Assembly: GCF_018350175.1 (NCBI RefSeq)
Contig: NC_058368.1
Coordinates: forward strand, 22,818,001-22,882,000
Reading direction: 5' to 3'
DNA length: 64,000 bases
Origin: Felis catus
Lineage: Eukaryota
In this document: piece by piece, positions 5,089-63,866 of the stretch
Numbering within the stretch: position 1 is the first letter of the stretch
How the letters are laid out: the number at the start of each line of letters is the position of its first letter
Made by a program: the position numbers and the translations under genes
Notes under the pieces: model-generated
What the model was told of the DNA's origin: nothing
The model's database searches: none
Seen by the model: the letters and a program-made list of their open reading frames with translations, nothing else

Positions 5089-5252
5089 CTCGATCTTGGA
5101 GTCATTTTTGTTGGTGTTGGCACACCTTCTGAAATTTTATATGGATTCTTCAGGGGTGATATATAGATGTTTCCCCCAGGAATTCGTAAAGGTGAACTAG
5201 AAAACTTGTAAGGGCTTCGAGGAATGTGAGGTATTGGTGACAAAGTCGGGGG
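5089..5252 (-). CDS. RB1: RB1 coding exon (exon 23 equivalent, C-terminal CDK site cluster), 164 bp
   Basis: Translates [54 protein letters not shown](R); acceptor ...ttttgccttag, donor gtttgt; 100-bp intron to the previous exon. Confidence 0.97.
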
Positions 5253-5313: not shown

Positions 5314-5502
<189 letters not shown>

Positions 5503-6173: not shown

Positions 6174-6296
<123 letters not shown>

Positions 6297-7617
6297 CTAG
6301 TAAATCAATGTAATATAAAAATATCAGAATTTTGTTACATAGTTGTGTTCTAAAGAGTACTCTGTTATCTTTCTTTTAGCTTCAAAAAAAAAAAAATGGA
6401 AGCTTAAGTTCCTATAGGATTATTTTTTCTAATCCTGAGCCCAGTTTGAAAGTTGATGTGAAGTGTTTAGCCCAAATTGTGTTTAAGGGACAAAATGCAA
6501 ATAGCCAAATTTCAATTATTAGAATGTATCATCTGGTTTGTAAATAACTCTAACCTTCACCCGTTACTTAAATTTTTCCCAGAAAAGCTGAAACTCGAAT
6601 GAGTTAACTGTGTAACTAGCACTTAAAAAGAAAAAAAGCCAGTTGTGTAAAAGGTTCAAACTATCAGATAAAATAATACTGAATACATTTGGTGATAGTG
6701 GTAAGGGGACTTTCTAGCAAGGGGCAGGAGAGAGTCTTTGTGTTGTAGATAATGTTCCTGATTTGGAGGCAGGTTATGCAGGTGAGTTCAGCTGATGAAT
6801 CTGCATTAAGATGTATCCTTATGATACATGGATGTTTCTATATGCATATTATATTTCAATAAAAAAATTTAATATAAAAATTAGATTAGAAATTATTCTC
6901 TATGAACTTAAAAATCAAACTTTATTCATCTGCATGAATTTTATTGCCAAATTTAAGTATTCATATCTCTGCAACATTCTTGCTTATATATACTATCGCC
7001 GGGAATATCTATTCACCATCCCTTGTTCGGCAACCTATCAGCCCCAATTCTGGTCTCCCCATTCAGAATGCCATCCAATAACTTCTTTGCTAATTCACAT
7101 TTTTTTCCTACTTCAGTTCTTTTCCTAAGGTTTCTCTCTGCAAACATCTTCTTGATTCAAGATACCTAATCTCTTTAGAAACCCTTAGCACTACTGTCTT
7201 TCTATATTGTAGAAAAGCAGAACCATAAGGCAATGAGTACCTACTTTTAAAAATCCAACATCCTAGAATTTATATATCCAAATATTTATTCTCTTGTAAA
7301 ATATACCTATTTGTAGGTTATACCCTTATACACTAGTGTACCTTTTGCTAAAAATATTCTTATTGGGAACATTACTACTGACCTTACAGAAATAAAAGGA
7401 TTTTAAGGGAACATTATGAACAATTGCATACCAACAAAACAACTATCTAAGATGGACTGGAAAAATTTAAGAAAAGACACAAACTACCAAAACTGACTAA
7501 AGAAGAAATAGAAAATATGAGCTTTCATTAATAATAAAAAACTATCCACAAACAAAAGCCCAGGCCTAGATGGCTTCACTGGTGAGTTCTACCAAACATT
7601 AAAAAAAAAAAAAATCA

Positions 7618-7841
7618 GGGGCGCCTGGGTGGCGCAGTCGGTTAAGCGTCCGACTTCAGCCAGGTCACGATCTCGCGGTCCGTGAGTTCGAGCCCCGCGT
7701 CAGGCTCTGGGCTGATGGCTCAGAGCCTGGAGCCTGTTTCCGATTCTGTGTCTCCCTCTCTCTCTGCCCCTCCCCCGTTCATGCTCTGTCTCTCTCTGTC
7801 CCAAAAATAAATAAACGTTGAAAAAAAAAATTAAAAAAAAA
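7618..7841 (+). mobile_element. Young feline SINE (SINEC_Fc-like), CpG-rich
   Basis: ggggcgcctgggtggcgcagtcggttaagcgtccgacttcagccaggtcacg..., intact A and B boxes, TSD (a)n-tca. Confidence 0.95.
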
Positions 7842-9390
7842 TCAATACCAATTCTTCACAAACTCTTCTGAAATTAGAAGAGGAGGGAACACTTTCCAAT
7901 TAATTCTGTGAGGTCAGTAGTACTCAAAAACAGACATCAGAGGAGAATTACCATTATCTCTTATGATTACAGATGTAAAAATCCTTAACAAAAACAAGCT
8001 GAATCAGCAGCATATCTAATGTGCTATGTGACCAAGTAGGATTCATTCCAGAAATGCAAGGCTGGTTTAACATACTGAAGAATTAATTAATATAATACAC
8101 CACAATACAATAAAAAGGAAAAAACCCAATGATCATCTCAATAGATACAGAAAAAAGCATTTGAAAAAAGCATTCAACACCCTTTTGTGATAAAAACACT
8201 CAATAAACTAAGAATAGATGGGGACTTCCACTACCTGATAAAGGGCATATACAAAAACTCCATAGCTAACAATACATTTAATGGTGGAAGACTGAATGCT
8301 TTCCCCTGAGGTCAGGAATAAGACAAGGATGTCCCCTTTCACCACTTCATTCAGTACTGTATTGGAGGTTCTATGCCAAAGCAATTTGACAAGTAAATGA
8401 AATAACAGTCATCTGGATTGCAAAGGAAGAAGTAAAACTACCTCTATTTGAAGATATATGAGCTTATATATTGAAAATAGTAAGGAATCCACTAAAAACT
8501 ATTACAACTGATAAATTACTTCAGCAAAACTGTAATATGATTAATATATGAAAATTAATTGTATTTCCGTACACTAGCAATGAACAATCCAAATAATAAA
8601 TTAAAGAGACAACTTCAGTTACAATAGTGTTAAAAGGAATAAACTACTTAGGTCTAAATTGAATATAACAAATGCAAGACTGTACTCTGAAAACTTAAAA
8701 ACGTTACTGAAAAAATTAAAGAACATCTAAATAAATGGAAAGACATCACATGTTCATGGACTGGAATACTTAATATTGTTAAGATGACAGAGCTGCTCAA
8801 ACTGATTTATGACTCAGTACAATCCCTTTCAAAATTCCAGTTGCCTTCTTTGTACAAATTGACAAGGTGATCCTAAAATTCATACAGAAATGCAAGCTTC
8901 AGAACAGCACAACAAATCTTGAAAAAGAAGAGTAAAACTGGGGTATCATGCTTCCCTACAGATCAATGCAGTACAATTAAGAGACCAGAAATGAACTTTT
9001 ACATATATATAGTTAGTTGATTTTTGACAACTGTCAAGAGGGAAAGAAAAGACTTTTCAAGAAATGGTGCTGGAACAAGCAGTATTCACACACAAAAGAA
9101 CGAAGTTAGACTCCTATCTCACACCATACAGAAAAATTAACTCAAAAAAAAAAAACAACAAAAAACGTAAGAGCTAGAAGGGGAATTAATCATGTTTATT
9201 ATTCATTTTCAATTACAAGTGGATTTTTCAGAACATTAAATTGTTCATACTCATTTTTCCCAGGCTCTGAGAAAAATGGAGAAAAATAAGGATAAACCTT
9301 GGTGGTCTCTGATTTGGCAATGGTTTTTTAGATATGACAACAAAAGCACTAGCATCAAAAGAAAAAACAAACTGAACACGATCAAAATTT

Positions 9391-9443
9391 TTTTATATTA
9401 AGTATAATTTATTGTCAAATTGGTTTCCATACAACACCCAGTG
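9391..9443 (-). mobile_element. 53-bp 5'-truncated young L1 3' tail with 17-bp TSD
   Basis: Reverse complement resembles the L1 3' terminus at ~63815-63865; flanked by gaacacgatcaaaattt and gaatatgatcaaaattt. Confidence 0.85.
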
Positions 9444-10581
9444 GAATATGATCAAAATTTAAAACTTGTGTGCCTCAAAGGACACCATCAAAAAAGTGAA
9501 AAAGACAACTCAGAACTGGAAAAAAATCATATGAAATAAGGGACTTTTATGTAGACAACATGAAGAACCCTTATAAATCAATAATAAATAGACACTCAAT
9601 TAAAAATTATGTAAATGATCTGAATAGATATTTCTCTAAAGAAGATAAACAAATGGCCAATAAGCACATGAAAAGTGTGTTTAATGTTCAATCAGTATCA
9701 TTAGCAATTAGGGAAATGAAAACCAAAACCATAAAGAGATATCACTCTATACCCACTAGGATGAGTATAATTAAAAAAGCAAATAAGAAGTTGGTGAGGA
9801 TGTGGAGAAACTAGAACCTCATACACCGCTGGTAGGAATGTAAAATGGTGTGGGTAAGTTGGAAAATAATCTGGCCAGGCTTCAAAGGTTAAACACAGTT
9901 ATTATATGACCTGACACCCTGTCAGGTATACATCCAGAAAACTGGAAACATATATCCACACAAAACTTGTACATACATGTTCACAGTAACATTAATCATG
10001 GTAGCCAAAAAATAGAAAGTAAATGTACACTAAATGATGAACAGATATATATGACGTGGTATATCCATACAATGGAATATCATTCAGCAATAAAAAGGAA
10101 TGAAGTACTTATACAAGCTATAACACAGATAAGCAATGAAAACACTATACTAAATAAAAGAAGCCAGACAGAAAAGACAACATATTATATGGCTGCAATT
10201 ATTAAAAATGTCCAGAATAGGCAAATCTACAGAGATAGACTAGTATTGCCTGGGGATGGAGGGAGTGGGGGAACAGGGGGTAAGTAGTTAAGGGTATGGT
10301 GTTTCTTTCTGGCATGATAAAAAACTGTTTTAAAAGTGTTTGTGACGATGCTTGCACAACTCCATGAATATACTAAAAACCACTGGGGTGTATACTTTAA
10401 TTTGTATGGTATGTGAATTACATCTCAATAAGTTGTTACTAAAAAATATATATATATTCTTATTATTCGGTACAGAGAAGAAAAATGAAGATGTGAGAGA
10501 TGGTTCTCTGTACATTAAATCTTTTAGTCATTAGTTTGTTCATTCATTCAAACAGTAGGCACTGTTTTAGATAAACTTGGG

Positions 10582-10806
10582 TTTTTTTAATAAGTTTTTT
10601 TAATGTTCATTTATTTTTGAGAGACAGAGAGAGAGACAGAGTGCAAGCAGGTGACGGGCAGAGAGAGGGAGACACAGAATCTGAAGCAGTCTCCAGGCTC
10701 TGAGCCGTCAGCACAGACCCTGATGCGGGGCTTGAACTCATGAACAGCAAGATCATGACCCGAGCCGAAGTTAGACTCTTACCCGACAGAGCCACCCAGG
10801 TGCCCC
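10582..10806 (-). mobile_element. CanSINE in RB1 intron 20
   Basis: Poly-T, gagagacag tract, ends gccacccaggtgcccc. Confidence 0.92.
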
Positions 10807-11118
10807 CAGATCAAATTGTTCTTAAATCTCATGCTTTTTCCATACTAACATGAAATCTAGTTTACCACAAGACAGAAAAAGTCCACAATAAACGGTTTCT
10901 TCAATGATTTGTGTAAACAAGATCTTTTAGGTCATTAAGCAAGTTACTAAAATACTCTCAAGCTCTAAAGCTCTAAGAAGTACAGCAAAATTACAAAAGG
11001 TAGCTAACAAGTGCACATATATTAAGTCTGCAAAATTGATTTGGCTTCTCATTTGAATCTAATCTTTTAAGAAATCAGTATACAGTTAACAAATAAGTAG
11101 GAGAAGAGAAGTGAACTA

Positions 11119-11295
<177 letters not shown>

Positions 11296-11741
11296 TCATG
11301 TTTATTATTCATTTTCAATTACAAGTGGATTTTTCAGAACATTAAATTGTTATAACCATAACACTGTTAAACAGCACCTTTTTTTCAAGTTTTTATTTAA
11401 ATTCCAGTTAGTTAACATGTAATGTTAGTTCCAGGTGTAGAATTCACTGATTCATTACTTACATTGCAACACCCAGCGCTCATCACAAGTGCCCTCCTTA
11501 ATACCCATCACCTCTTTAAGCCACTCCCTACCTGCCCTTTGGTAACCAACAGCTTGTTGTCTATAGTTAAGAGTTTGTTTCTTGGTTTGCCTCTTTTTTT
11601 CCTCTATGTGCATTTGTTTTGTTTTTTAAATTCTACAAATGAGTGAAATCATGGTACTTGTCCTCTGACCAACTTATTTCACTTAGCATAATACTCTCTA
11701 GCTCCATCCACATTGTTGCAAATGCCAAGATTTCATCCTTC

Positions 11742-12230
11742 TTTTTTGTTTTGAGAGAGAGAGGGGGGAGAGAGCATGCAGGCAGGGGAGGGCAGAGGTA
11801 GAGGTAGAGGGAGAGAGGGAGAGGGAGAGAGGGAGAGGGAGAGAGGGAGAGGGAGAGAGGGAGAGAGGGAGAGGGAGAGAGGGAGAGGGAGAGAGGGAGA
11901 GGGAGAGGGAGAGAGGGAGAGGGAGAGAGGGAGAGGGAGAGAGGGAGAGGGAGAGGGAGAGAGGGAGAGGGAGAGGGAGAGGGAGAGAGGGAGAGGGAGA
12001 GGGAGAGAGGGAGAGGGAGAGGGAGAGAGGGAGAGGGAGAGGGAGAGAGGGAGAGGGAGAGGGAGAGAGGGAGAGGGAGAGGGAGAGAGGGAGAGGGAGA
12101 GGGAGAGGGAGAGGGAGAGGGAGAGGGAGAGGGAGAGGGAGAGAGGGAGAGGGAGAGAGGGAGAGAGGGAGAGAGGGAGAGAGGGAGAGAGGGGGAGAGA
12201 GAGAGAGGGGGAGAGGGGGAGGGAGGGAGG

Positions 12231-12288
<58 letters not shown>

Positions 12289-12424
12289 GGAGTGAGGGAG
12301 AGAATCCCAAGCAGTCTCCATGCTCAGCATGGAGCCCAATGTGGGGCTTGAACCCATGAACCATAAGATCATGAGCTGAAATTAAGAGTTGGACACTTAA
12401 CCAACTGGGTCACTCAGGCACCCC
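11742..12424 (-). mobile_element. CanSINE with a hugely expanded internal CT tract
   Basis: SINE head at ~12303-12424; TSD-like ccaagatttcat on both sides (11725-11736 and 12423-12434). Confidence 0.88.
11753..12303. repeat. ~550-bp (GGGAGA/GGGAGAGA/GA)n polypurine tract
   Basis: Nearly pure G/A on the plus strand; accounts for the SPSL and RERG low-complexity ORFs. Confidence 0.97.
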
Positions 12425-14319: not shown

Positions 14320-14560
14320 ACACTTTTTGAGTGCTTACTATGTGCTAAGCCCTGTTTGAAGCATTTATGTGTTAATTAATTTAATTAACTCAAAAACCCT
14401 ATAAGGTAGATTATTATTATAAAATAGATTATTATCATTTCCACTTTACAGACGAAGCAACTGAAGCACAGAGATAATAGGTGACAAAGTCAAACCTAGT
14501 AAGCAGAAGGGCCATGATTTGAACCCAGTCACAGCCAGGTTCCAGAGGTCATGTTCTTGA
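14320..14560 (-). mobile_element. MIR
   Basis: gagtgcttactatgtgcta..ttacagacgaagcaactgaagcacagaga..gatttgaacccag. Confidence 0.8.
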
Positions 14561-14576
14561 AAGTAATCATCTACTA

Positions 14577-14789
<213 letters not shown>

Positions 14790-17095: not shown

Positions 17096-18052
17096 GAAAA
17101 AGATAATGCTTGATTATTTACATTAATGCATAACTTAGCCAACAAATTTATATGTAAAGGCAGAAGCGTCATATGCTAGAAATAGTTTGGGTACAAGTTA
17201 GCATGGAAAGGACATCTCTGGAAAGTAGTCCCTGAACTAATCACAGAGCACTATAATGTCAATTCCTAGACAAAACTAAATAGAAACAACATTAGGTACA
17301 CTTCTATGAAAGGCAGAAGAGCTAGAATGCTTAGGAGCATGCACTTCAGGGTCAGATTGCTTGGGTTTGATTTCTGTTGAGTTTTGGCAAGTTACCTTAT
17401 TCCTCTAATTCCTATTTTATAGAGAACTGAGGCTGATAGCAGTATTTATCACCTTATAGGGATGTTATGAAGACCAAATGGGAAAAAAAAACCAATCTCA
17501 AGTATTTAGCCAACTGTCCAGCCCATAGTGAACCCTCAATAAATATTAGCTATTTGCTTTTTTCTTCCATTATCGTCATCATCATCGTGTACCTATTAAC
17601 TGATTTAGTTTCATATCCTACGCTAATCCCTATGCCTATCCTATGCTTTACCCCAAATGCATTGATCTGTATTCCCTGAAAATGTTTCCCACTTTCTTCG
17701 CATTACACTTTGGAACTCATGCCATTTCTGACTCTTGGAACACCTTCTGTCTCCTCCCTCCTCTCCAGTTTCCATAGAGAAATCCTACTTTCCATCTTTC
17801 AGACCTAACTAAATTGCCATCTCTGCCATGAAAACTATCCTTATTACATCAAACATGAGTGATTTCAGTAGCACTTGGTACCACTTTTATATGATCTTAG
17901 GTCATGTATCTTATATTCCTGCTCCCTCAAAGCAAGAACAATGTCTTATTCAAAATTCTATTCCTTACAGTTTCCATATAGTATCTTGCATTACACCATG
18001 CTCAAAACCTATTTGCAGGTTGAGTTAATAGCACAGCATACATTCTACTTAC

Positions 18053-18171
18053 ATATCTGCTGCAGTGTGATTACTCTGGAGAGGAAGGCTGAGAGTACAA
18101 GCAGATTCAAGGTGATCAGCTGGTCCTTCTCGGTCCTTTGCTTGTTTAATTAGATCAAATAAAGGTGAATC
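18053..18171 (-). CDS. RB1: RB1 coding exon (human exon 18 equivalent), 119 bp
   Basis: Reverse complement translates [39 protein letters not shown](M), the RB spacer region; acceptor ...tttcatatag, donor gtaagt; length matches human exon 18 as recalled. Confidence 0.97.
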
Positions 18172-19887: not shown

Positions 19888-20114
19888 TTTTTTTTTATTT
19901 TTTTTAATTTTTTTTCAATGTTTATTTATTTTTGGGACAGAGAGAGACAGCATGAACGGGGGAGGGGCAGAGAGAGGGAGACACAGAATCGGAAACAGGC
20001 TCCAGGCTCTGAGCCATCAGCCCAGAGCCCGACGCGGGGCTCGAACTCGCGGACCGCGAGATCGTGACCTGGCTGAAGTCGGACGCTTAACCGACTGCGC
20101 CACCCAGGCGCCCC
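19888..20114 (-). mobile_element. Young feline SINE inserted at the tail of an older SINE (20123-20332)
   Basis: CpG-rich, ends gcgccacccaggcgcccc; TSD ttgggtgatttttt. Confidence 0.94.
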
Positions 20115-21179
20115 TTGGGTGATTTTTTAAATGTTTATTCATTTTTGAGAGACAGAGAGAGATGGAGTGCAAGTGGGGGTGGGGCAGAGGGAGAAGACGA
20201 CATAGAATCCAAAGCAGGCTCCAGGCTCTTAGCTGTCAGCACAGAGCCCAACGTGGGGCTCAAACTCACAAATCATGAGATCATGACCTGGGCTGAAGGT
20301 GGACGCTTAACCAAATTTCAGTGATTTTAGACATTTATAATTGCTGACAGATTTGGTTTTGTGTGGTTACTGTGTTTTATGTTAGCATTGTTTTCATCAC
20401 TTTTTAAAATGTTTCACTAAATGATCTGTGATATCCAAAAAAAAAGGACTTTTCAGGCTTAACCAAAATCCAGAAGTCAAAGAAAAAGATGAACTGATTT
20501 GACTACATAAAAACTAAAAACTTGTTTGACTAAAACCACAATAAACCAAGTTAAATTAAATCTTTAAAAAATAAATAATATTAGGGTTTTTTTCCTACAG
20601 CTTCATAACATGATTTTTATTATAAATAATTCTTTTCTATTCTTTCCTTTCATTAGGGGCACTCTGAAGTGCAATCTAAGTAAAGGCTTTCATTGGAGTA
20701 AGGTAAGGCTAAACACCAGTTAATACATGTAGTCATATTCAATGTTTTACATATTCTAGCCACTGACAAATTGAATATATTTATTTAACTAAAATAGTGT
20801 GGGTATAAATCCATCTATAAATCCATATATTCAGCAGGAGTGGCCTATTCCCATTTTTATTTCAATGATATTTTAAGAGACCCTAAGACTCACTAAGAAA
20901 TGCAAGTAAACCTGAGCCTTCACAGGATTTAGGTATACTACAAATCAGGCATTCTACTTTCTCTTCAGATTAGCACAACAGGCTGGGCTGCAGATTAGCA
21001 TAACAGTATTATACTAAAGTGAATGCCTCCTCCAACGGTTAAGGTAGCATTTTTTAACCAATAGTCTTCATGTTTCACTCAAGTATCCCTTTTATTCCTC
21101 CATCTCCCCCCAACACAAGTGGTAACACAGATATATAGATATGTTTATAATGAGTATGTCATGATAGTGGGAAAGAAGT

Positions 21180-32779: not shown

Positions 32780-34372
32780 TTGTTTTTCCCTTCTTGAAAA
32801 GGTACAAAAGCAAATCAATGGAAAAAGGATTGGCTTTATAACAAATAGTGATGAAAAAATGAATATCCGGATATAAGCCAAAATAATAGAACCTTGACTT
32901 AAATCCTAAACCTTGTACAAAAATAAAATAAAAATGGGGCACTAGGCTGGAACATGCAACTCTTGATCTCAGGGTTGTGAGTTCCAGTGCCATGGGTATA
33001 GAGATTACTTAAAAAAATAATCTTTAAAAAAGTTTTTTAAAGGCTAAAAATGAATCATACACTTACATATAAAATGTGAAGCTATAAAACTTTTTAAAAA
33101 GGCATAGGGGAAAACCTTCGGGATCTTAGACTCGATACCACAAGCATGATCTATGAAAGAAAAATTAATAAGTAGGACTTCATCAAAATTAAAATATTTT
33201 GCTATGAGAAAGACCACAGAAGAGGATGAAAAAAGAGCTACAGACTAGGAGAAATTATTTGTAAGCCACCTCCCTAGTAAAAGACTAGTATCTAATATAT
33301 AAAGAATTTGTAAAACTCAATGATAATAAAACAATCCAACAAGAAAATGGGCAGATAATGAAGAGAGCTTTTAGTAAAGAGGAAATACAGATCACGAATA
33401 ATCATAGGAAAAGATATTCAATATCATTAGCCATCATCCTAATAGGAAATGTAAATTAGAACCTCAGTGAGCTCTCCCTATACTATCGGAATGACTCAAA
33501 TAAAAAAAAATGGTGACAATACCATATGATGGCAAGAAGGCAGAGAAACTGGAACCCTCATGTATTGCTGGTGGGGATTTAAAATGGTACAACCACTCTG
33601 GAAAATACTTTGGCAGTCTCATTAAACAACACACACAATAACCATACAATTCTGCAATTATACTCTGGGTATTTATCCCAAAGTAATGAAAACTCAAGTT
33701 CATATAAAACCTATGCACTAATGTCCAAAGCAGCTTTTACTTGTGATAGCTAGAAACTGGAATCAGGCCAGATATTCTTCAATATGAGTATAGTTAAAAA
33801 AAAAAAAAAAAAACTGTTGTACATTCAGGGGTGCCTCGGTGGCTCACTCCATTAAATGCATGACTCTTGGTTTTGGCTCAGGTCATGATTTCACAGTTTG
33901 TGAGTTCAAGCCCCATATTGGACTCTGTGCTGACAGTGTGGAGCCTGCTTGGGGTTCTCTCTCTCCCTCTCTCTCTCTCTGACCCTCCACCATTTGCACT
34001 CTGTGTCTCTCAAAATAAACTTTAAAAACAAAAGTAAAAAAAAAACAAAACTGTAGTACATTTATACTATGGAATACTAGTCAGCAATTAAAAGGCATTA
34101 ACTATTGATAAATGCAGTATCTTAAATGCATCTCTAGAAAATTAGGCTGAGTGGGAAAAAAAAAAACAAACCATAATCCTAAAACGGTAATTGTATTTTA
34201 TTCCATTTATATTACATTCTGAAATAAAAAAATTTTAGAAATAGAAGGCAGACTAATAGTGACCAGGGGTTAGGGACAGGCATGAGGGGCTATAGGGATG
34301 TGGGTTTAGTTCCCTGTATGATACAAGCGTTCAGTATCTTGACTGTGATGGTAGATATATGAACCTACACAC
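32780..34372 (+). mobile_element. Old L1 3' portion with SINEs at ~32936-33030 and 33828-34045
   Basis: ggacttcatcaaaattaaaa, gagaaactggaaccctcatgtattgctggtggg, tactatggaatactagtcagcaat. Confidence 0.85.
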
Positions 34373-40426: not shown

Positions 40427-40658
40427 TTTTTTTTTATTTTTTTTTATTTATTTTTTTCAACGTTTATTTATTTTTGGGACAGAGAGACAGAGCATGAACG
40501 GGGGAGGGGCAGAGAGAGAGGGAGACACAGAATCGGAAACAGGCTCCAGGCTCCGAGCCATCAGCCCAGAGCCTGACGCGGGGCTCGAACTCACGGACCA
40601 CGAGATCGTGACCTGGCTGAAGTCGGACGCTTAACCGACTGCGCCACCCAGGCGCCCC
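40427..40658 (-). mobile_element. Young feline SINE
   Basis: CpG-rich; TSD tactactctttt. Confidence 0.95.
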
Positions 40659-43600
40659 TACTACTCTTTTAAGTGCACCCAATTTTTTCCCAGAAATTTA
40701 TGGAGGCTTTTATTTTTAATGGAGTCATTTTTTCATTTAAATTCTTGATCTAGTTGGAATTTGTTTTGTTTGGTATAAAGAATAAGTTAAAGTCCACCTT
40801 TTTTTTTTAATTGCTTCCCTGATGACCCATTAAGCATGTCTAAAATATTTGTATTTTTCTTACTGATTTAAAGTACTAATATTACATTTCCCCACGTGCA
40901 TGCCTATTTCTGGGCTCAAATTCACTCGTAACTAAAGAAATGCAAATTAAACAAGATACCACTTTTAACCTATTAATTTATGAAGGGTTTAAAAGTCTCA
41001 TAATAATCTGGCTTAGAGGAGGATGTGGGGAAATAAAGTACTACTTATAGGAACATGAATGGGAAACAAGGACAAATTTTTTTTAGAAGTAAAACTGCTA
41101 GGTTATACTATATGTATACATAGTATATACATAATATAGTATACAATATATATGTATTTAGCATGTGTATATATATTACACACATTAAATATAATCCACA
41201 TACACTATACATATATATACCATTTTATTCAAGACATTCACTAAAAATCTATTGGGATTTTTAGTGGAATAACATTAAACTTTTAGATTTGTCCCAGTAA
41301 AACTGCATGTCACATATTTAGGTATTCTTTTATGGCCTTCATTACAGTTTTGGGTCCTTTGTTTTCATCTAGATCTTGTTCTTTCCCTATTACATTTATT
41401 CCTAAGGTATTTTATACTATTTACTGTTTTAACCAGAATCTTTTTTCCATTACATCTTCCAGTTGATTAGTGCTGATACAGAATTATCTTATTTAATGAG
41501 AGTGACACCGGTTAATCAAAAAAGCTAAGGAATCATTTTTAAAGGATACATATGTATTTTAAAACATTTTACTTGAATTTTCAAAAATATATAACATATA
41601 TTCATTAAAAAATTCTCCTTACGTAGGGTCAAATTTCTTTTTTTAGGTAGAGTTTCAAGTTGTTTCTCTCCTATGAATCACATAAGCAATGCTTGTCTAT
41701 GATTTTCACTATGTATAGAAGCAGGAAGAGACCTCTGAGCAGTCCAGCTCCCTCAATTTACAGCCAAGTAGCCAAAATCTTAGGAAGGTCAAATGACTGC
41801 GTAACAAGCTTCTCTGTTCTTTGCCTGTCCTCTTTATATAACACTTTCACATTTCCCTATTCAAAATTTAAAAAAATTACAGATTTACATTCTATTGCCT
41901 ACATACACACTTCCGTACTTCGGTCATAAAGAACCTGCACTAGCATCTAATAGTCTTTTTCCTTCTAGTCTATCCATAGAGAAAAATTTTCAAAATATTT
42001 CTGAGATTTCCAGATATTTCAGAGAAATGGCCTGCAGGACTTGCTACTCCTTCAATTCTTAAGATCCGTGGTCTCTTACGTGTTTTTAGTCACAGTTTTA
42101 TTTGAGAATATCATCAAAGCCACGGACCTAGTCCTCGGGGGAATGAATTAAACAGTAGTTTTAGATATGTCAAGGTCTTCAGGTAGAGATCCCTTACACT
42201 AGACTACCAAAATAGCCTCAGCATTAAACCAAATTACCACATATATTTGGACTATATTAATCTACCAAACCAACATACAGTATGTTTCTCAGAACCACAA
42301 TTTGACATCAGGTGCTTTTCTTGAATTGAAATGAAGGCCAACGAGAATTGGCGTATGTTCTGCCACTAGAAAACAATCAGCAGTGGTCATTTAATTGTTC
42401 ATGGTAAAGATTCACAATGTAGTTCTGAGACAAAGCAAAAGAAAAGTTTCTCCCTCGACACACGGGAATGTTTTCCTTCATTAAATAGAAGCGACATAAT
42501 CCACTATGATTTCCTTTTCTCCCTTGCATCAAATGCAGCAACTTCCCTTAGCCTAGATTTTTCTAACATCATTTCATATTCTGCCCTTCCTACCCTTCTC
42601 TCTTCCTGCTAATACTTGCCTTTTATTCTTTTACTAACATGTTATCAATTTGTGTGTTAAAGATTTTTTTTTACCTTTTGCAAACACTGTAGTGTTCAAA
42701 ATGAATAATTTTTAGAATGAAAATGACGAATGCATACAATAATTTCACATATCTCATATTCAAACTTTGTAACTGTTCTATACGCTCTTTTTAAACTTTT
42801 AAAGTTTAGGTATAATTTACATATAATAAAACACTAAAATCTTAATGTTTATTTTCATCCGTTTTAAAATCAGCAGCAGCTTTAAATTCTTTTTGGAAGC
42901 AAGAAGGGTAATATATGAATAAATAGTTGATTCACTCATGAGCTGATCTGTGACAGGCTGGCAGGGGGAAAACAGAAAAGGGTAGGACTAAAAATCAGAA
43001 GACAAGACAAGACATTATAACAATCATACAGATAAGAGTAACAAGGTTAGCCCAGAAAGGTGGAAGTGAGTGATCTTGCAATAAAGCCCAGAAAATAGGC
43101 TTGATGAAAACAAAGAGAAAGTAAGAATGGCTGAGGAGCACACTTGACACACTATTTGTTTATAGTGGGTGTCTAATAAAGCTTTGTTTATTCTTTCAAC
43201 AAACATTATTATGAGCCTATTTTGAAACAAGTCAGATTTGTTGCCTCCTCAAAGTCACAGTTGTGGCAGAAATTTAGTCAAGAATTCAGAAGTTACCCAA
43301 ATCCTTACGCTTCTAATAGTTAACTACCAGAATACTCTCTCTCACCCCGAAGAAAAATTAGTTACAAAACTAACTGATTTATACCACTATTGTAGCGAAT
43401 CAAACATCTACTTTATAGGCTGGGTGGTTATTTAATTGGCTTCTTGATAAAATTAAAGTTTGAAAGTGATGACTTGCATAATGAGATTCACTACATCTCA
43501 AATAGGTGGCACATGTTATTTCTTCCCCGGAGAAAACCTCACACAAAAAACAAATTGATTCACAGACTTAACCTTCGGAAGTATACAAATCTCGTATTAA

Positions 43601-46260: not shown

Positions 46261-46970
46261 GCGAGCCTTTCTTTTCTACTTCAGAGAAAGCCCATCTCAC
46301 AATACATCTGGCAACGGAGGAAAGGCTTCAATTCAGCAAGAGCTAACACGCTTAGGAATTTATTTCGGAAACTTTAAAGACTCTTCTGCTTACTACCGTC
46401 TGGAATCCACTTCAGGAATACCAAAAAGGAAAACCTTATTTAAAAGGAGCAAGAAGTAAGTGAGACCAAACTGGGAATGTTTAAGTCTCTGAAACTCTGC
46501 ACTGAAAAGCAAAAAAGATTGCTAACTTTAGCTTAAATATTCTGGAGCATAAAGAAACAGTTCTGAAATATTCACTTTGCCTACTGAAATGCAAGTTTAC
46601 CAGAAGAGTAGTTTTATTCCTGTTTCAAAACACCGCTTTTCTTTAAATTTATAATCTAACAGGCTGGCTTCACTGACTACATTTCTTTTTAAAGTTGTTC
46701 GTGGGCTACCTAAACCCTGGATTCACGGATTTTCTGGAAATCAGAAAATGAGAGTATTTTCCTGTTGAAGAACCAAGTGGAAAATTTACAACAACGAATT
46801 TCATGTTTCCTGTCGAGATTTCGAAGAAAAAGGAAATATTTATAAAATCACCCAAAGATACAAGGAATTTGCAAATACTCCAGAGGTTATAAAGTGGTCA
46901 CAATCTGAATACCAAAGAAAACTGCAGCAGACCAAAGGATTTAACACTGTAAACTGGACGTGCCTTTATA

Positions 46971-48005
46971 ATGGTAAGCAATAACAGCTCCCAATGTTAC
47001 TATGATGACTCCTTTAAGTACACTTTGTATGGCTGCATGTTTAGTATGGTATTTGTGCTTGGGTTAATATCTAACTGTGTTGCCATATACATTTTCATCT
47101 GCACCCTCAAAGTGCGAAATGAAACTACAACATACATGATTAACTTGGCAATGTCAGACTTGCTTTTCGTTTTTACTTTACCCTTCAGGATTTTTTACTT
47201 TGCAACCCAGAATTGGCCGTTTGGAGATCAACTCTGTAAAATTTCAGTGATGCTATTCTATACCAACATGTATGGAAGCATTCTGTTCTTAACCTGTATT
47301 AGTGTCGATCGGTTTCTGGCAATCGTCTACCCATTTAAGTCAAAGACTCTAAGAACCAAACGAAATGCAAAAATCGTGTGTATTGCTGTGTGGCTAACTG
47401 TGATAGGAGGAAGTGCACCAGCAGTTTTTTTTCAGTCTACCCACTCTCAGGGTAACAATGCCTCAGAAGCCTGCTTTGAAAAATTTCCAGAAGCCACATG
47501 GAAAACGTATCTTTCAAGGATTGTAATTTTCATCGAAATAGTAGGATTTTTTATTCCTCTAATTTTAAATGTAACTTGTTCTAGTATGGTGCTAAGAACT
47601 TTAAATAAACCTGTTACATTAAGTAGAAGCAAAATAAACAAAACTAAAGTTTTAAAAATGATTTTTGTACATTTGGTCATATTCTGCTTCTGTTTCGTGC
47701 CTTACAACATCAATCTTATTTTATATTCTCTTATGAGAACACAAACATTTGTTAATTGCTCAGCAGTGACAGCAGTAAGGACTATGTACCCAATCACTCT
47801 CTGCATTGCTGTTTCAAACTGTTGCTTTGACCCTATAGTTTACTACTTCACATCGGACACGATTCAGAATTCAATAAAAATGAAAAACTGGTCTACTAGG
47901 AGAAGTGACTTTAGATTCTCTGAAGTTCACAGCACAGAGAACTTTATTCAACATAACCTACAGACCTTAAAAAGTAAGATATTTGACCATGAATCTACAA
48001 TATAA
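46971..48005 (+). CDS. LPAR6: Lysophosphatidic acid receptor 6 (P2Y5), single-exon class A GPCR nested antisense in RB1 intron 17
   Basis: 344-aa ORF with seven hydrophobic segments, NLAMSD, DRF, CFVPY and DPIVY motifs; sequence recognisable as LPAR6; location in RB1 intron 17 on the opposite strand is the known arrangement. Confidence 0.98.
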
Positions 48006-48173: not shown

Positions 48174-48987
48174 ATGTATTCTATTCTGTATACATACCAC
48201 TTTATTTTTCTGAGCCAGTTTGATCTGTTCCTTCCTCTTCATTAAAAAAATCCCTAAAAAAGTTGTTCAAAGTCTAAAAGTGACTATGATTTCAATCATG
48301 TGGTGACCATGTGCACTGTCTGAATTTCTTAGCAATTTTAAACTAAACGAAGTATAACATTAAATGTTTTAAAGTATTTAATATTTTTATTCAACATATA
48401 TCTAATTTCTATTTCAATTTGAAGTGAAATAACTAATCATGTTTCTTGAACTGTAACATAAATGAGAAAGGAGAGTAATTTGAAAGAGTGGGGAGTGTTT
48501 TTGAAAAAACAGCTAAAAATGTCTTCTGTAGACTAACAACACACTAACGCTATTTGGGGATCTCTAACAGTTACACTTTCAGATAATATTTAGGATTTTG
48601 TCTTTGTAGGAAATTCATAACAAGCATATGCTATCTCACTATATAGTATAGTATGCCTTCAAATTGTTATTTTGATCCATTCACTGGATATAATAGCACT
48701 CAATTTCAAAATAATATACACCACCAAAATTGAGAGGGAAGAAACTAACAAAATTGTTGTTTTGCTAAGTCCAGTAAGAAAATACTACTTGGAGGTACAT
48801 TTTAAAGGCATATTTATGTCATAATAAGTAACTTGTATATTAAGTATTTTAAGTCAGAAATACCACAGATAGTAAGATAGTGAAATACAAGACTCGGCAC
48901 TTAGAAAGCGATAAGTAAATATATTACTTCCCTTCCCTCTTGACCATTTAAAGCCAAATATTGAACAGATGAAAATATTATTTCCAG

Positions 48988-49092
48988 TAGGCAAAGTGTT
49001 ATTGTATGCCAATATAATTTATAAAGTAAAAACATAGATCCATAGGCAAAATGTTATTGTATGTCAATATAATTTATAAAGTAAAAATATAG
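48988..49092. repeat. Tandem duplication, 50-bp unit, period 55
   Basis: 48988-49037 vs 49043-49092, 3 mismatches. Confidence 0.92.
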
Positions 49093-53954: not shown

Positions 53955-54197
53955 ATTTTTATTTTTTTATTTTTTTAAAAAAAAATTTTTTTCCAACATT
54001 TATTTATTTTTGGGACAGAGAGAGGCAGAGCATGAACGGGAGAGGGGCAGAGAGAGAGGGAGACACAGAATCGGAAACAGGCTCCAGGCTCTGAGCCATC
54101 AGCCCAGAGCCTGACGCGGGGCTCGAACTCAACGGACCGCGAGATCGTCACCTGGCTGAAGTCGGACGCTTAACCGACTGCGCCACCCAGGCGCCCC
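53955..54197 (-). mobile_element. Young feline SINE, followed by a short L1 3' tail (~54198-54272)
   Basis: CpG-rich, ends gcgccacccaggcgcccc; then ttttaattccagtatagttaacatacagtgtt. Confidence 0.93.
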
Positions 54198-55337
54198 TAT
54201 TTTTATTTTTTTAATTCCAGTATAGTTAACATACAGTGTTAAACCAGTGTCAGGTGTACAATGTAGTGATTTGAAGATTCATTTTTAATAATGAATATAT
54301 TTACTTATATAGTACCTACGCTGGGTATTTATTAATGTAGTTCTAATAAATGTCCTATACCTACGCACAAACATGTAAAGAAAGTAAAGACTGCCTCTTG
54401 TATCATCAAACCTATGTTTGGTTCACTTAATCCAACAAAAGCTCAAGGTAAAGAGGCAAATTATCCTTTGTCAATACTATAATACAAAAATTCAACTCTT
54501 GCAGCTATCACCATAAACTTGATTTATCAATCTTAAACTGTTACTGTTGAATCTCCACCTTGAGTGAGGCTATAGAGTTGTTAAAAGAAACCACTCTGTT
54601 CTTGACATTCTTTATGTATCTATAGATTTCTCTTTTGGAACAACTATCTAGGCCTGTTGTATCCTGGAGTTTTTCCCCATTTTTTTTTTCTCTCTGCATT
54701 CCTGTTTAATTTTTAGCTCCCATAATTCACCTTTCTTGGATTTCTTTTTTACTTTGCTGAAGTATATTCTCTAGTAATTTTATTTCAAAAAGGATAGTCA
54801 AGGCGTAAATTTTCTGAGTCATTACATGTCTAAAAATTGTTTGATTTTACCCTCCTGTTTGACATGTAGGTCAAATACAGAATTCTAGGTCATCAGACAT
54901 CCAGTACTCCTGCTAAGAACTTTGATGCTGATCTGGATCTCATTCCACTGTAAATAACTGACTTTTTTCTTGCTGGAGGCTTTTATAATTTTCTCATTAC
55001 CTTTGGAATTCTGAATTATTCACCAAGATATATCCACACTCATTTATCCTGCTTGGATCTATGAATATTGTCCATTGAAAGCCTTCAGGCTTTTATTAGC
55101 TTTGGAAATTTTTCTTCTATTTTAATCTGGTCTTTCTTTTGGGAATGGATTTTGAACTGAGGTTACCCAAAAAATACCAAAATAAGGGCAACATAACCTT
55201 GCAACACAATAATTTGATGCATTTTTAAGCAGAAATACCTTTCCTATTCTTTTTTTTCCCCTTCAAATCTGTTATAGAAATCTAGATTTACCTAATCTTC
55301 TGCTCTGTTTCTTTTGTAGGCACCATCAGGTAGCTGT

Positions 55338-57224: not shown

Positions 57225-59027
57225 TTCTGAAGGAGTGTATATTTTTAAGAAAAAGTTGGTATTTTCAAGATCTCAGTATTGGATTAGGGAATCCAATGTT
57301 AATTTTTGTTTAGAACTCATGTATTAGTAAAAGATGAGTCATTTTACTTTTCCACCTTTCTCATTTTTACTGTTTAAAAGAAAAAAACCAAAATGACAGA
57401 ACTTAAGTTATAGAAACTAGTGTTACTTAGTATGTAAATGAAAACTTTTAGATAATTATCTTAAAACATAGAAAGGGCAAGGTAATGATCAGATATTAAC
57501 AAAAATAACAAGTTTTTATTAATTTATTAGTAAGGATATAAATTACCAGATATTAAACTCCAAAAAGGAAATAAACTTAAATAAACGATAGCAAGACAGA
57601 TTTATGTTAGACTTTGAAAAATTCTTAGAGTATTATCAAATCTTAAAGAGAAATTATCTTTTATACTTTAACAGAGGCAAGAAACACTGAAACTCAGCAA
57701 AAAGAAAAAAATTTTTTTTTGAAAGAGAAACAAATCCAGCTGTTTCCTACTCTACATTCCCTTATGTTCTAAATCCACACTTATAAAAAGACACCATAGA
57801 TACTTATGATATTTGGCTATTGCTGACAATAAGTAAATTAGTAAAACCACAGACACAAGGGCTACTGACATGCATTTTGGGTTTTTTTTTGTTTTTTTTT
57901 TTTTCTGACATGCATTTTGAAACAGACTAGATTGTGACAGTTCAGAGTTCTGAAAACATGCCATAAATATTTGGAAAAGATAAATGTCAAAAAGTTGGTT
58001 CTATTTTATTATGAAAAGTAACTGAGCTTAGATGATTTAGGAGTAAACGTCCTAGAGTGTTTCCAAAATTTTACTAAGCTTACTATTAATAGCCTCTTAT
58101 TTTTCTGGAGGAATTTAGAAACTGTATTAATTGAAATACATATCTCATAAGGTATTTCTAGTTTTTGTTGTTTTCATATCCAGATTCCAGAACCCTTCCT
58201 CAGTATTATAGTCAGGATATGACTCTGAACAAACGCTCTGAACAACAGTACAATTGCTTCCATGTCCACAGGTTAATAAGTACAGAGGATCTTTCTGAGC
58301 TATTCTTCTACAATTGCTATCTCCCTTCTTGTTTGTACTTGCATAATGAACTAACACTGCCCTCGGGTAATTACTGACATGATTCACAACTAAAGCAATA
58401 TGACAAATTCCAACTGCAGTATAATAGTGAACACTGCCCACATTTAACAATGCTGGAGTTCAGTTACACCTTTTTCCCTCTGAACTTTTTCCACTTTGAA
58501 AAGGCAATGGGGGAAGGCAGCGCCTCAGGAGAAAAGCTCTACATACATTTCGTAAGTGAGGATAAACAGATCTAATACTGTTTAACTGTATTCTCAGTTC
58601 TCTGTTCTTAAAAAAATCACTGTATAGAAGAAAGGGAATGAAGGAAACTAACAACTGTGCTGTTTCTAAAATATACCACTCTCATAAATGTTCATTTATT
58701 CTGCACATTAACTCTGAAAGATAAATATTATTATCCCTGTTTTATAGACAAGGAAACCTGAGATGCAGCGACATAACTTGTTCAGAATCACACCAAAGTG
58801 AGTTACATAGTATCTCTGAACCTTCGCTTTCCTTATCTGTAAACTAGGGATAGTTTCATTTACCTTCTGTGAAAATTAATTGAGAGCTGGTAACTCCAAA
58901 GCCCAGGTTCCTCCCACTACAGCAGAGTGACACAGAAAGAAAGATACAAACACAAATAAAACATGAATAAAGAAACTAATCACAACACTGAATATATCCA
59001 ACAATAAACTAATACACACCATAAGAC

Positions 59028-59345
59028 AGCACAGAGGTTAAGAGCACAGTCTCCGGAACCAGAGAGCCCAAGTAAAATTCTGTCTCTGCCATCAACTTAG
59101 TTTTGTGGACCTGCAATATAATGAATTCCAACTGCGGTATAACAGCAAACACTGCCCACATTTAACAGTGCTGGAGTTCAGTGACACCTTATAAGGAAAA
59201 GGTTCTCAATTTTTCTGTGCCTTAGTTTCTTCACCTGTGAAATAGTGATAATGATAGCATCTATTTCACAGAGTTTACAAAGTAAATGAGTTAACACATT
59301 TCAGCACTTTTAATAGTGCCAGTAAGAGCACACATGCAAGTAGTA
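59028..59345 (+). mobile_element. MIR interrupted by a 78-bp copy of nearby unique DNA
   Basis: ggttaagagcacag..tctctgcca..gtggacct [insert] ..tctgtgccttagtttcttcacctgtgaaat.. Confidence 0.8.
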
Positions 59346-61825: not shown

Positions 61826-63866
61826 TATGGAAGTTCTAGTGTCAGCAATCAGACAACAAAAGGAAATCAAAGGCATCAGAACTGGCAAAGATGAAGTCAA
61901 GCTTTCACTTTTTGCAGATGACATGATACTATACATGGAAAACCCGATATACTCCACCAAAAGTCTGCTAGAACTGATACATGAATTTAGCAAAGTTGCA
62001 GGATACAAAATTAATGTATAGAAATCGGTTGCATTCTTATACACTAACAATGAAGCAACAGAAAGACAAATAAAAAAACTGATCCCATTCACAACTGTAC
62101 CAAGAATCATAAAATACCTAGGAATAAACCTAACCAAAGATGTAAAAGATCTGTATGCTGAAAACTACAGAAAGCTTATGAAAGAAATTGAAGAAGATAA
62201 AAAGAAATGGAAAAATATTCCATGCTCATGGATTAGAAGAATAAATATTGTTAAAATGTCAATCCTACCCAAAGCTATCTACATGACATTCAATGCAATC
62301 CCAATAAAAATTGCACCAGCATCCTTCCCGAAGCTAGAACAAGCAATCCTAAAATTTCTATGGAACCACAAAAAACCCCAAACAGCCAAAGTAATATTGA
62401 AGAAGAAGACCAAAGTGGGAGGCATCACAATATCAGACTTTAGCCTGTACTACAAAGCTGTAATCATCAAGACAGCATGGTATTGGCACAAAAACAGACA
62501 CACAGACCAATGGAATAGAATAGAAACCTCAGAACTAGACCCACAAAAGTATGGCCAACCAATCTTTGACAAAGCAGGAAAGAATATCCAACGGAAAAAA
62601 GACAGTCTCTTTAACAAATGGTGGTGGGAGAACTGGACAACAGCATGCAGAAGGATGAAACTAGACCACTTTCTTACACCATTCACAACAATAAGCTCAA
62701 CATGGATGAAGGACCTGAATGTGAGACAGGAAACCATCAAAACCCTAGAGGAGAAAGCAGGATAAAACCTCTCTGACCTCAGCCGCATCAATTTCTTACT
62801 TGACACATCTCCAAAGGCAAGAGAATTAAAAGCAAAAATGAACTATTGGGACCTCATCAAAGATAAACAGCTTCTGCACTGCAAAGGAAACAACCAACAA
62901 AACTAAAAGGCAATCGACGGAATGGGAAAAGATATTTGCAAATGACATCGGACAAAGGGCTAGTATCCAAAATCTATAAAGAACTCACCAAACTCCACAC
63001 CCAAAAAACAAATAATCCAGTGAAGAAATGGGCAGAAGACATAAATAGACACTTCTCTAAAGAAGACATCTGGATGGCCAACAGGCACATGAAAAGATGC
63101 TCAACGTCACTCATCATCAGGGAAATACAAATCAAAACCACACTGAGATATCACCTCATGCCGGTCAGAGAGGCTAAAATGAACAAATCAGGAGACTATA
63201 GATGCTGGAGAGGATGTGGAGAAATGGGAACCCTCTTGCACTGTTGGTGGGAATGCAAACTGGTGCAGCTGCTCTGGAAAACAGTGTGGAGGTTCCTCAA
63301 AAAATTAAAAATAGATCTACCCTATGACTCAGCAATAACACTGCTAGGAATTTATCCAAGGGATACAGGAGTGCTGATGCATAGGGGCACTTGCACCCCA
63401 ATGTTTACAGCAGCACTTTCAACAATAGCCAAATTATGGAAACAGCCTAAATGTCTATCAACTGATTAATGGATAAAGAAATTGTGGTTTATATATACAA
63501 TGGAATACTACTTGGCAATGAGAAAGAATGAAATCTGGCCTTTTGTAGCAATGTGGATGGAACTGGAGAGTGTTATGCTAAGTGAAATAAGTCAGGCAGA
63601 GAAAGACAGATACCATATGTTTTCACTCACATGTGGATCCTGAGAAACTCAACAGAAGACTGGGGGGAGGAGAAGGAGGGGAAAAATTACAGAGAGGGAA
63701 GGAGGCAAACCATAAGAGACTCTTAAATACTGAAAATAAACTGAGGGTTGATGGGGGGTGGGGAGGAGGGGAAAGTGGGTGATGGGCATTGAGGAGGGCA
63801 CCTGTTGGGATGATCACTGGGTGTTGTAGTGAAACCGTTTTGACAATAAATTTCATATTAATAAAA
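61826..63866 (+). mobile_element. Relatively young 5'-truncated feline L1 (RT core to 3' UTR), frameshifted
   Basis: [14 protein letters not shown] (RT active site), [36 protein letters not shown]; three broken ORFs; G-rich 3' UTR and AATAAA at ~63845. Confidence 0.97.

Follow-up and report, generated by a model that had tools for sequence, protein, structure and literature searches.

A 92-base block that interrupts an old L1 fragment in an intron of the cat RB1 gene is a patchwork of copies of neighboring sequence, and its anatomy suggests that a single repair event, with serial switches of template primed by microhomology, probably produced it. In the 64,000-nt stretch of Felis catus DNA analyzed here (contig NC_058368.1, hereafter the window), the block spans 9180-9271 and, as an earlier note on this DNA had reported, holds three exact matches to sequences elsewhere in the locus, all in direct orientation. 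Sequence comparison pairs 9180-9245 with 11286-11351 in RB1 intron 19 (66/66 identical), 9243-9257 with exon bases 11154-11168 (15/15) and 9260-9271 with SINE bases 10693-10704 (12/12). The three donors are all found on the same side of the block and share a strand, at 1.4-2.1 kb and within 2.2 kb, and the two main donors, from the intron and the exon, are 118 nt apart and both inside 198 nt. Together with a short inverted segment, these matches form four segments that jointly account for all 92 bases of the block (Table 1).

Table 1. Coordinates, within the window, of the insert, its donors and the surrounding features
Feature	Position	Strand	Description	Evidence
Insert segment I	9180..9245	+	Exact copy of 11286-11351; left junction with 0 nt microhomology	
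Insert segment E	9243..9257	+	Exact copy of 11154-11168; 3-nt overlap with segment I	
Insert segment S	9260..9271	+	12-nt SINE-motif match; last 7 nt may be native L1	
Donor 1	11286..11351	+	3' end of intron 19; ends 12 nt short of the exon	
Donor 2	11154..11168	+	Inside exon 20	
SINE	10582..10810	-	Holds candidate donor 3 (10693-10704)	
Hairpin	9252..9278	.	Putative foldback step	Folding and inverted-match search
Adjacent 9-nt direct repeat	9269..9287	+	9269-9277 and 9279-9287, at the right junction	
Host L1	7951..9850	+	Old decayed fragment in RB1 intron 20, antisense to RB1	L1 copies in the window
RB1 exon 20	11128..11273	-	146 nt, AG/GT ends, pocket B domain, intact	
RB1 exon 21	6187..6291	-	105 nt, next exon downstream	
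Hypothetical cryptic exon	9123..9173	-	51 nt, created at the left junction	

The 66-mer is the sole 100% match among self-BLAST alignments of at least 40 nt, and the longer exact repeats of the window all lie within SINEs. Thus the 66-mer is a two-copy sequence within these 64 kb, and the dispersed repeat that the earlier note had named as a possible objection does not appear over that span. Matches of at least 15 nt within 3 kb occurred in none of 5000 shuffles of 9243-9271 and in 1.85% of 1626 real 29-nt stretches, where they are probably due to repeats; a 15-nt match within about 300 nt of donor 1 was seen in only 1 of 20,000 shuffles. Both the 66-mer and the 15-mer are beyond chance. The 12-mer at 9260-9271 has seven other copies in the window (four direct and three inverted), which agrees with its description in the earlier note as the weaker match, and one of the inverted copies, at 7719-7730, lies at a distance similar to that of 10693-10704. 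Matches of at least 12 nt are found in 0.4% of 5000 shuffles as against 3.2% of 1394 real 20-nt stretches. The 12-mer is therefore a suggestive match rather than a secure donor, though we lean towards a copying step from a SINE having taken place. An 11-nt match at 6572-6582, covering 9253-9263, was also considered as a donor and rejected as being at chance level (at least 11 nt in 4.7% of shuffles). We take the SINE at 10582-10810 to be a member of a carnivore SINE family.

A profile built from four other L1 copies in the window matches both flanks of the block, at 8958-9146 (model positions 3-184) and 9287-9388 (model positions 240-345), in keeping with the earlier claim that the block breaks an L1 in an RB1 intron. 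The 140 nt between these matches occupy 55 model positions, which gives a net insertion of about 85 nt, and because the block interrupts the L1, the L1 was the recipient of the copies and the RB1 intron and exon were their source. On the left flank, the score peaks or its plateau ends at about 9179 in three of the four L1 copies. The right end, placed at 9271 in the earlier note, could lie anywhere in about 9258-9274 with scores equal within noise in a split alignment to four paralogues, one of which (at 32830) is itself interrupted by another insertion and is uninformative. The right breakpoint is not fixed because the L1 paralogues are too distant; the gap position is inconsistent between MAFFT and global alignments to the L1 copies, and in one paralogue the native L1 resembles the final 7 nt of the SINE-like 12-mer. 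The host L1 probably extends beyond the boundaries given in Table 1.

The same L1 carries other alterations. A second small insertion of about 59 nt (9393-9449), 130 nt from the block, is flanked by an exact 11-nt duplication (9380-9390 and 9450-9460), resembles 63815-63866 in inverted orientation and looks like a 5'-truncated antisense L1 tail. An A-rich run at 9144-9166 stands in place of about 19 nt of ordinary L1 of the paralogues and ends 13 nt left of the insert. The L1 also harbors a young SINE (7600-7845) with an A-rich flanking duplication, which is 96-97% identical to 40433-40659 and 53986-54212.

At the right side of the block we observe an inverted segment that the earlier note overlooked. 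Positions 9252-9259 are the exact reverse complement of 9271-9278, and the bases 9258-9259, left over in the earlier reading, are explained by this inverted arm, although the exon donor already accounts for six of the eight bases in the arm. The match extends into a hairpin with a 3-nt loop, in which 9252-9263 pairs with 9267-9278 along 12 bp that include a single mismatch, read on the minus strand as G.T. Stems of at least 12 bp have nine centers in the window, most of them in SINEs or AT-rich tracts, and 0.44% of window positions lie within 15 nt of such a center; of 8137 positions sampled, 16 had an exact inverted 8-mer no more than 30 nt away, all these hairpin statistics being post hoc. 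Folding of the 150 nt around the junction shows no unusual stability for the region as a whole (z of -0.44), and the same holds for the donors (z of 0.60 and 0.21). Adjacent 9-nt direct repeats like that at the right junction occur at 25 of 58,901 positions, and the repeat may either predate the event or belong to it.

The segments are joined by shared bases at the internal junctions. Segments I and E overlap by 3 nt, and segment E and the inverted arm by 6 nt, with chance probabilities of about 0.07 and 0.003, respectively, and there is no microhomology at the left junction. Furthermore, 9246-9271 is fully tiled by local matches of at least 11 nt, whereas none of 165 control stretches from 7900-9100 and 9470-10400 could be covered to at least 90% by pieces of this size; with looser pieces of at least 8 nt, 14 of the 165 tile as well as the insert site. 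The template switching proposed in the earlier note thus gains from the 3- and 6-nt overlaps and from the foldback, and is weakened by a left junction lacking microhomology and by the insecure SINE donor.

From the observed matches, overlaps, hairpin and L1 continuity, we hypothesize a single event whose order, strand and enzymes may be reconstructed as follows. A break or a collapsed fork in the L1 would have left a minus-strand 3' end on the right. The first template of this end was probably the SINE at a distance of 1.4 kb, from which it gained 5-9 nt with, as primer, a match of 3-7 nt depending on where native L1 ends. This end would then have folded back and copied 8 nt of its own flank, primed by three base pairs and a G.T pair that came from the SINE-like letters. 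The new 6-nt end could have primed in exon 20, 1.9 kb away, gaining 9 nt, and a backward slip of 195 nt on the same strand via a 3-nt match would have added 63 nt of intron 19, after which the end was presumably joined to the left side with 0-1 nt homology and little net loss of L1. A collapsed leftward fork that re-primed behind itself would also fit. Synthesis of the minus strand is favored because every internal switch would be primed, and plus-strand synthesis is disfavored because it would start 2.1 kb away without homology and would give no origin for 9258-9259. Within the 3 kb to the right, the plus strand holds the 6-nt primer word at just two places, 11163 and 11310, each of which belongs to the donor region, and therefore the exon was likely chosen by sequence match and not as an exon.

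The proposed event would be a hybrid, combining foldback synthesis of the SD-MMEJ or TMEJ kind with kilobase switching of the MMBIR kind. POLQ-dependent templates are reported within about 20 bp of the break (PMC11541566), and tracts of 1-25 nt are described for Pol theta and repeatable switches using 2-5 bp for MMBIR (PMC7407515). The anatomy of the insert mixes Pol theta and MMBIR features and points to no single enzyme; classical Pol theta end joining alone, one of the routes suggested in the earlier note, fits poorly with a 63-nt tract from 2.1 kb. The span of the donors on their one side is near the range of roughly 2 kb reported for the resection of meiotic breaks (PMC7615360), and foldback at one end with capture of the other by end joining with 0-5 nt has been described in yeast (PMC11724301). 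Intron 19 also contains a GA-rich purine tract of about 520 nt (11784-12302), which begins about 430 nt from donor 1; it is a possible triplex or fork-stalling site on the donor side.

Among the other explanations, we consider it unlikely that the exon-intron junction pre-existed in a loose molecule, either a 195-nt circle (microDNA) or a displaced flap of Okazaki size, derived from 11154-11351. The broken end would in that case have folded back, primed on the loose piece, read 72 nt over its junction and then been ligated. The junction does link the end of 11154-11351 to its start via a 3-nt direct repeat, as in a circle, and this interval encloses both main donors and most of exon 20; microDNAs are reviewed as being 200-400 bp long, exon-enriched and often bearing junction repeats of 2-15 bp (PMC7177960), and templated insertions derived from flaps are reported in yeast mutants (PMC11724301). 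However, a backward slip of the polymerase would give an identical sequence and requires no additional molecule, the size of 195 nt falls slightly short of the quoted range, an insert only 2 kb from its source is unexpected for a freely moving circle, and the SINE match would stay unexplained. It is in our view quite unlikely that the insert preserves, in heritable form, the trace of an exon-centered RB1 circle of nucleosome size (or a looped Okazaki flap) that served as repair template at a distance of 2 kb from where it arose, right after a Pol theta-like foldback in the same tract. If this were true, such patches in genome assemblies would be a readable fossil record of the use of microDNA in the germline, and the branch-point-like motif beside the new AG could open a 51-nt in-frame cryptic RB1 exon.

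A pile-up of at least two independent small mutations at the same spot, such as an old slip duplication of 9-10 nt followed by a 66-nt copy and then a patch, appears very unlikely since the segments share overlapping bases; the closeness of the two main donors to each other also speaks against it. The adjacent 9-nt repeat, rare as it is, could nevertheless be older, and the same L1 did receive another small insertion 130 nt off. Slightly less credible still is an artefact of the assembly or library (a chimeric molecule, an amplification chimera or gap filling). The perfect match with neighboring sequence speaks for such an artefact, yet graph misjoins generally need overlaps longer than 0-6 nt, the window is free of N and keeps the purine repeat at 11784-12302, which suggests long reads, and a chimera with three or four switches would need to dominate the consensus. 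Reverse transcription of the patch from unspliced RB1 pre-mRNA, by L1 ORF2 or the reverse transcriptase activity of Pol theta, is hardly believable. All donors are upstream of the site in one transcript, and RNA-derived templated insertions have been reported (PMC5110952), but there is no poly(A) at either end and the flanking repeat is at most 4 nt. Moreover, if the foldback fixes synthesis on the minus strand, the growing chain would run in the same sense as RB1 RNA, which excludes the pre-mRNA as its template. Retro-insertion mediated by L1 was rejected, as there is no tail and no duplication. Repeated template switching within a single repair event is thus the reading that we prefer.

The 78 distinct copied bases, which include no CpG, show zero differences from their donors. 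The 95% upper bounds on age are 8.7, 12.0 and 17.5 My at rates of 2.2, 1.6 and 1.1 x 10^-9 per site per year, of which the first is a general mammalian rate and the second corresponds to 0.81 x 10^-8 per generation with a 5-year generation (both from bioRxiv 10.1101/2024.04.06.587788), while the last is a low-end assumption. The perfect identity from which the earlier note concluded that the event was recent is therefore a weak guide, as it allows ages of up to 8.7-17.5 My. The insertion is far younger than the host L1; it could be common to many cats, and as a marker free of homoplasy it could be of use within the cat family.

The exon that contributed donor 2 translates to a pocket-B peptide of RB1, with human RB1 as the best match in the PDB (E of 5e-28). 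Other RB1 exons were located on the minus strand at about 18050-18170, 14500-14630, 5350-5470 and 5090-5250, and since the donor exon maps between about 14500-14630 and 6187-6291, the insert lies in the intron that follows it. The numbers 19, 20 and 21 are our assignment, made from human exon sizes. A comparison of the exon 20 peptide with metagenome contigs, used for exon mapping only, gave 17 loci, the best being 84% and 82% identical; matching introns were found at none of these 17 loci, and none of 358 candidates from prokaryote genome contigs matched the peptide. The acceptor region of exon 20 (11274-11351) has only a short pyrimidine stretch with an A-rich region before it and no AG for at least 68 nt.

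Exons 20 and 21 retain their reading frames and splice dinucleotides. Donor 1 holds a motif resembling a branch point, which lies 18 nt from the AG of the acceptor, and in the insert the copied motif lies 12 nt before a new AG. A donor-like site at 9122 would complete the 51-nt cryptic exon, which is open in the phase of exon 20. Human branch points are reported mostly 18-35 nt upstream, with a wider range of 10-60 nt (PMC5378181), so the 12-nt spacing is marginal. Selection would probably act against a hydrophobic insert of 17 residues in the pocket domain, and judging from these signals it is highly improbable that the cryptic exon is included in RB1 transcripts. The insertion is most likely a neutral intronic scar. 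A full-text literature search, judged by titles and the openings of abstracts, found no earlier description of it.

Elsewhere in the window we note a 350-codon open reading frame (46953-48002, plus strand) that lies within the long upstream intron, on the strand opposite to RB1, and that we presume to be the nested GPCR gene LPAR6. There is a tandem duplication at 48983-49092 (two 55-nt copies with 92% matches) and a head-to-tail SINE dimer at 19910-20312 with a period of 219. A 78-nt local duplicate (58395-58472 and 59113-59190, 88% identical and 718 nt apart) may be either a local copy that arose earlier or a dispersed repeat of small size.

As read here, the event matters little, given that dozens of complex templated insertions occur per human genome (PMC8421209) and that the RB1 exons are intact; its weight would rise if the circle or the cryptic exon proved true. 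It is an unusually legible case, in which each base is traceable and the foldback suggests the strand and the order of synthesis, and it brings together a short-range foldback and kilobase switches, signatures usually assigned to different pathways. The insertion is a new instance of an already described type of templated insertion. Among human deletion breakpoints, Abyzov et al. are said to have found in 2015 that the templates of microinsertions cluster at two distances, one of them a few kilobases, which would fit the 1.4-2.1 kb seen here; those microinsertions reportedly accompany deletions, whereas the cat insert involved little net loss.

Among the closest known systems is the complex microhomology-mediated templated insertion (MMB-TI) of the human germline, which is described with three to five templates, inverted and direct copies and microhomology at most junctions, and counted at 33 and 26 in two people (PMC8421209). 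Like these, the insert shows multiple templates in mixed orientation (two secure donors, the foldback arm and a probable SINE donor), microhomology at its two internal junctions (3 and 6 nt, with 0 at the left) and no large rearrangement. However, the tool used in that study seeks an inverted template within 100 bp, whereas the long tracts of the insert came from 1.9-2.1 kb; the inverted copy formed by 9252-9259 and 9271-9278 does lie within 100 bp, and its 8 nt fall below the 10-nt minimum of the paper. Pol theta end joining and SD-MMEJ share with the insert a hairpin-primed inverted copy by the break, short microhomologies and repeated priming, but their templates are described as lying within about 20 bp and their tracts as 1-25 nt (PMC11541566, PMC7407515), while here only the foldback keeps to the former distance, the other donors are 1.4-2.1 kb away and one tract measures 63-66 nt. 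The local n-jumps and templated-insertion bridges of cancer genomes similarly chain together templates copied from nearby before coming back to the host site, and RB1 itself is reported to be hit by such events in tumors (PMC7025897); these are somatic and called from copy-number segments, whereas the insert is an intronic patch of 90 nt that left the exons intact. Templated sequence insertion polymorphisms (TSIPs) of class 2 resemble the insert as DNA patches at a break without target-site duplication or poly(A), but their donors are distant (PMC5110952), while those of the insert are multiple and local, within 2.2 kb. The target-site duplication and poly(A) of class 1 TSIPs have no counterpart here, where there is no tail and the flanking repeat (9176-9179 and 9270-9273) is at most 4 nt.
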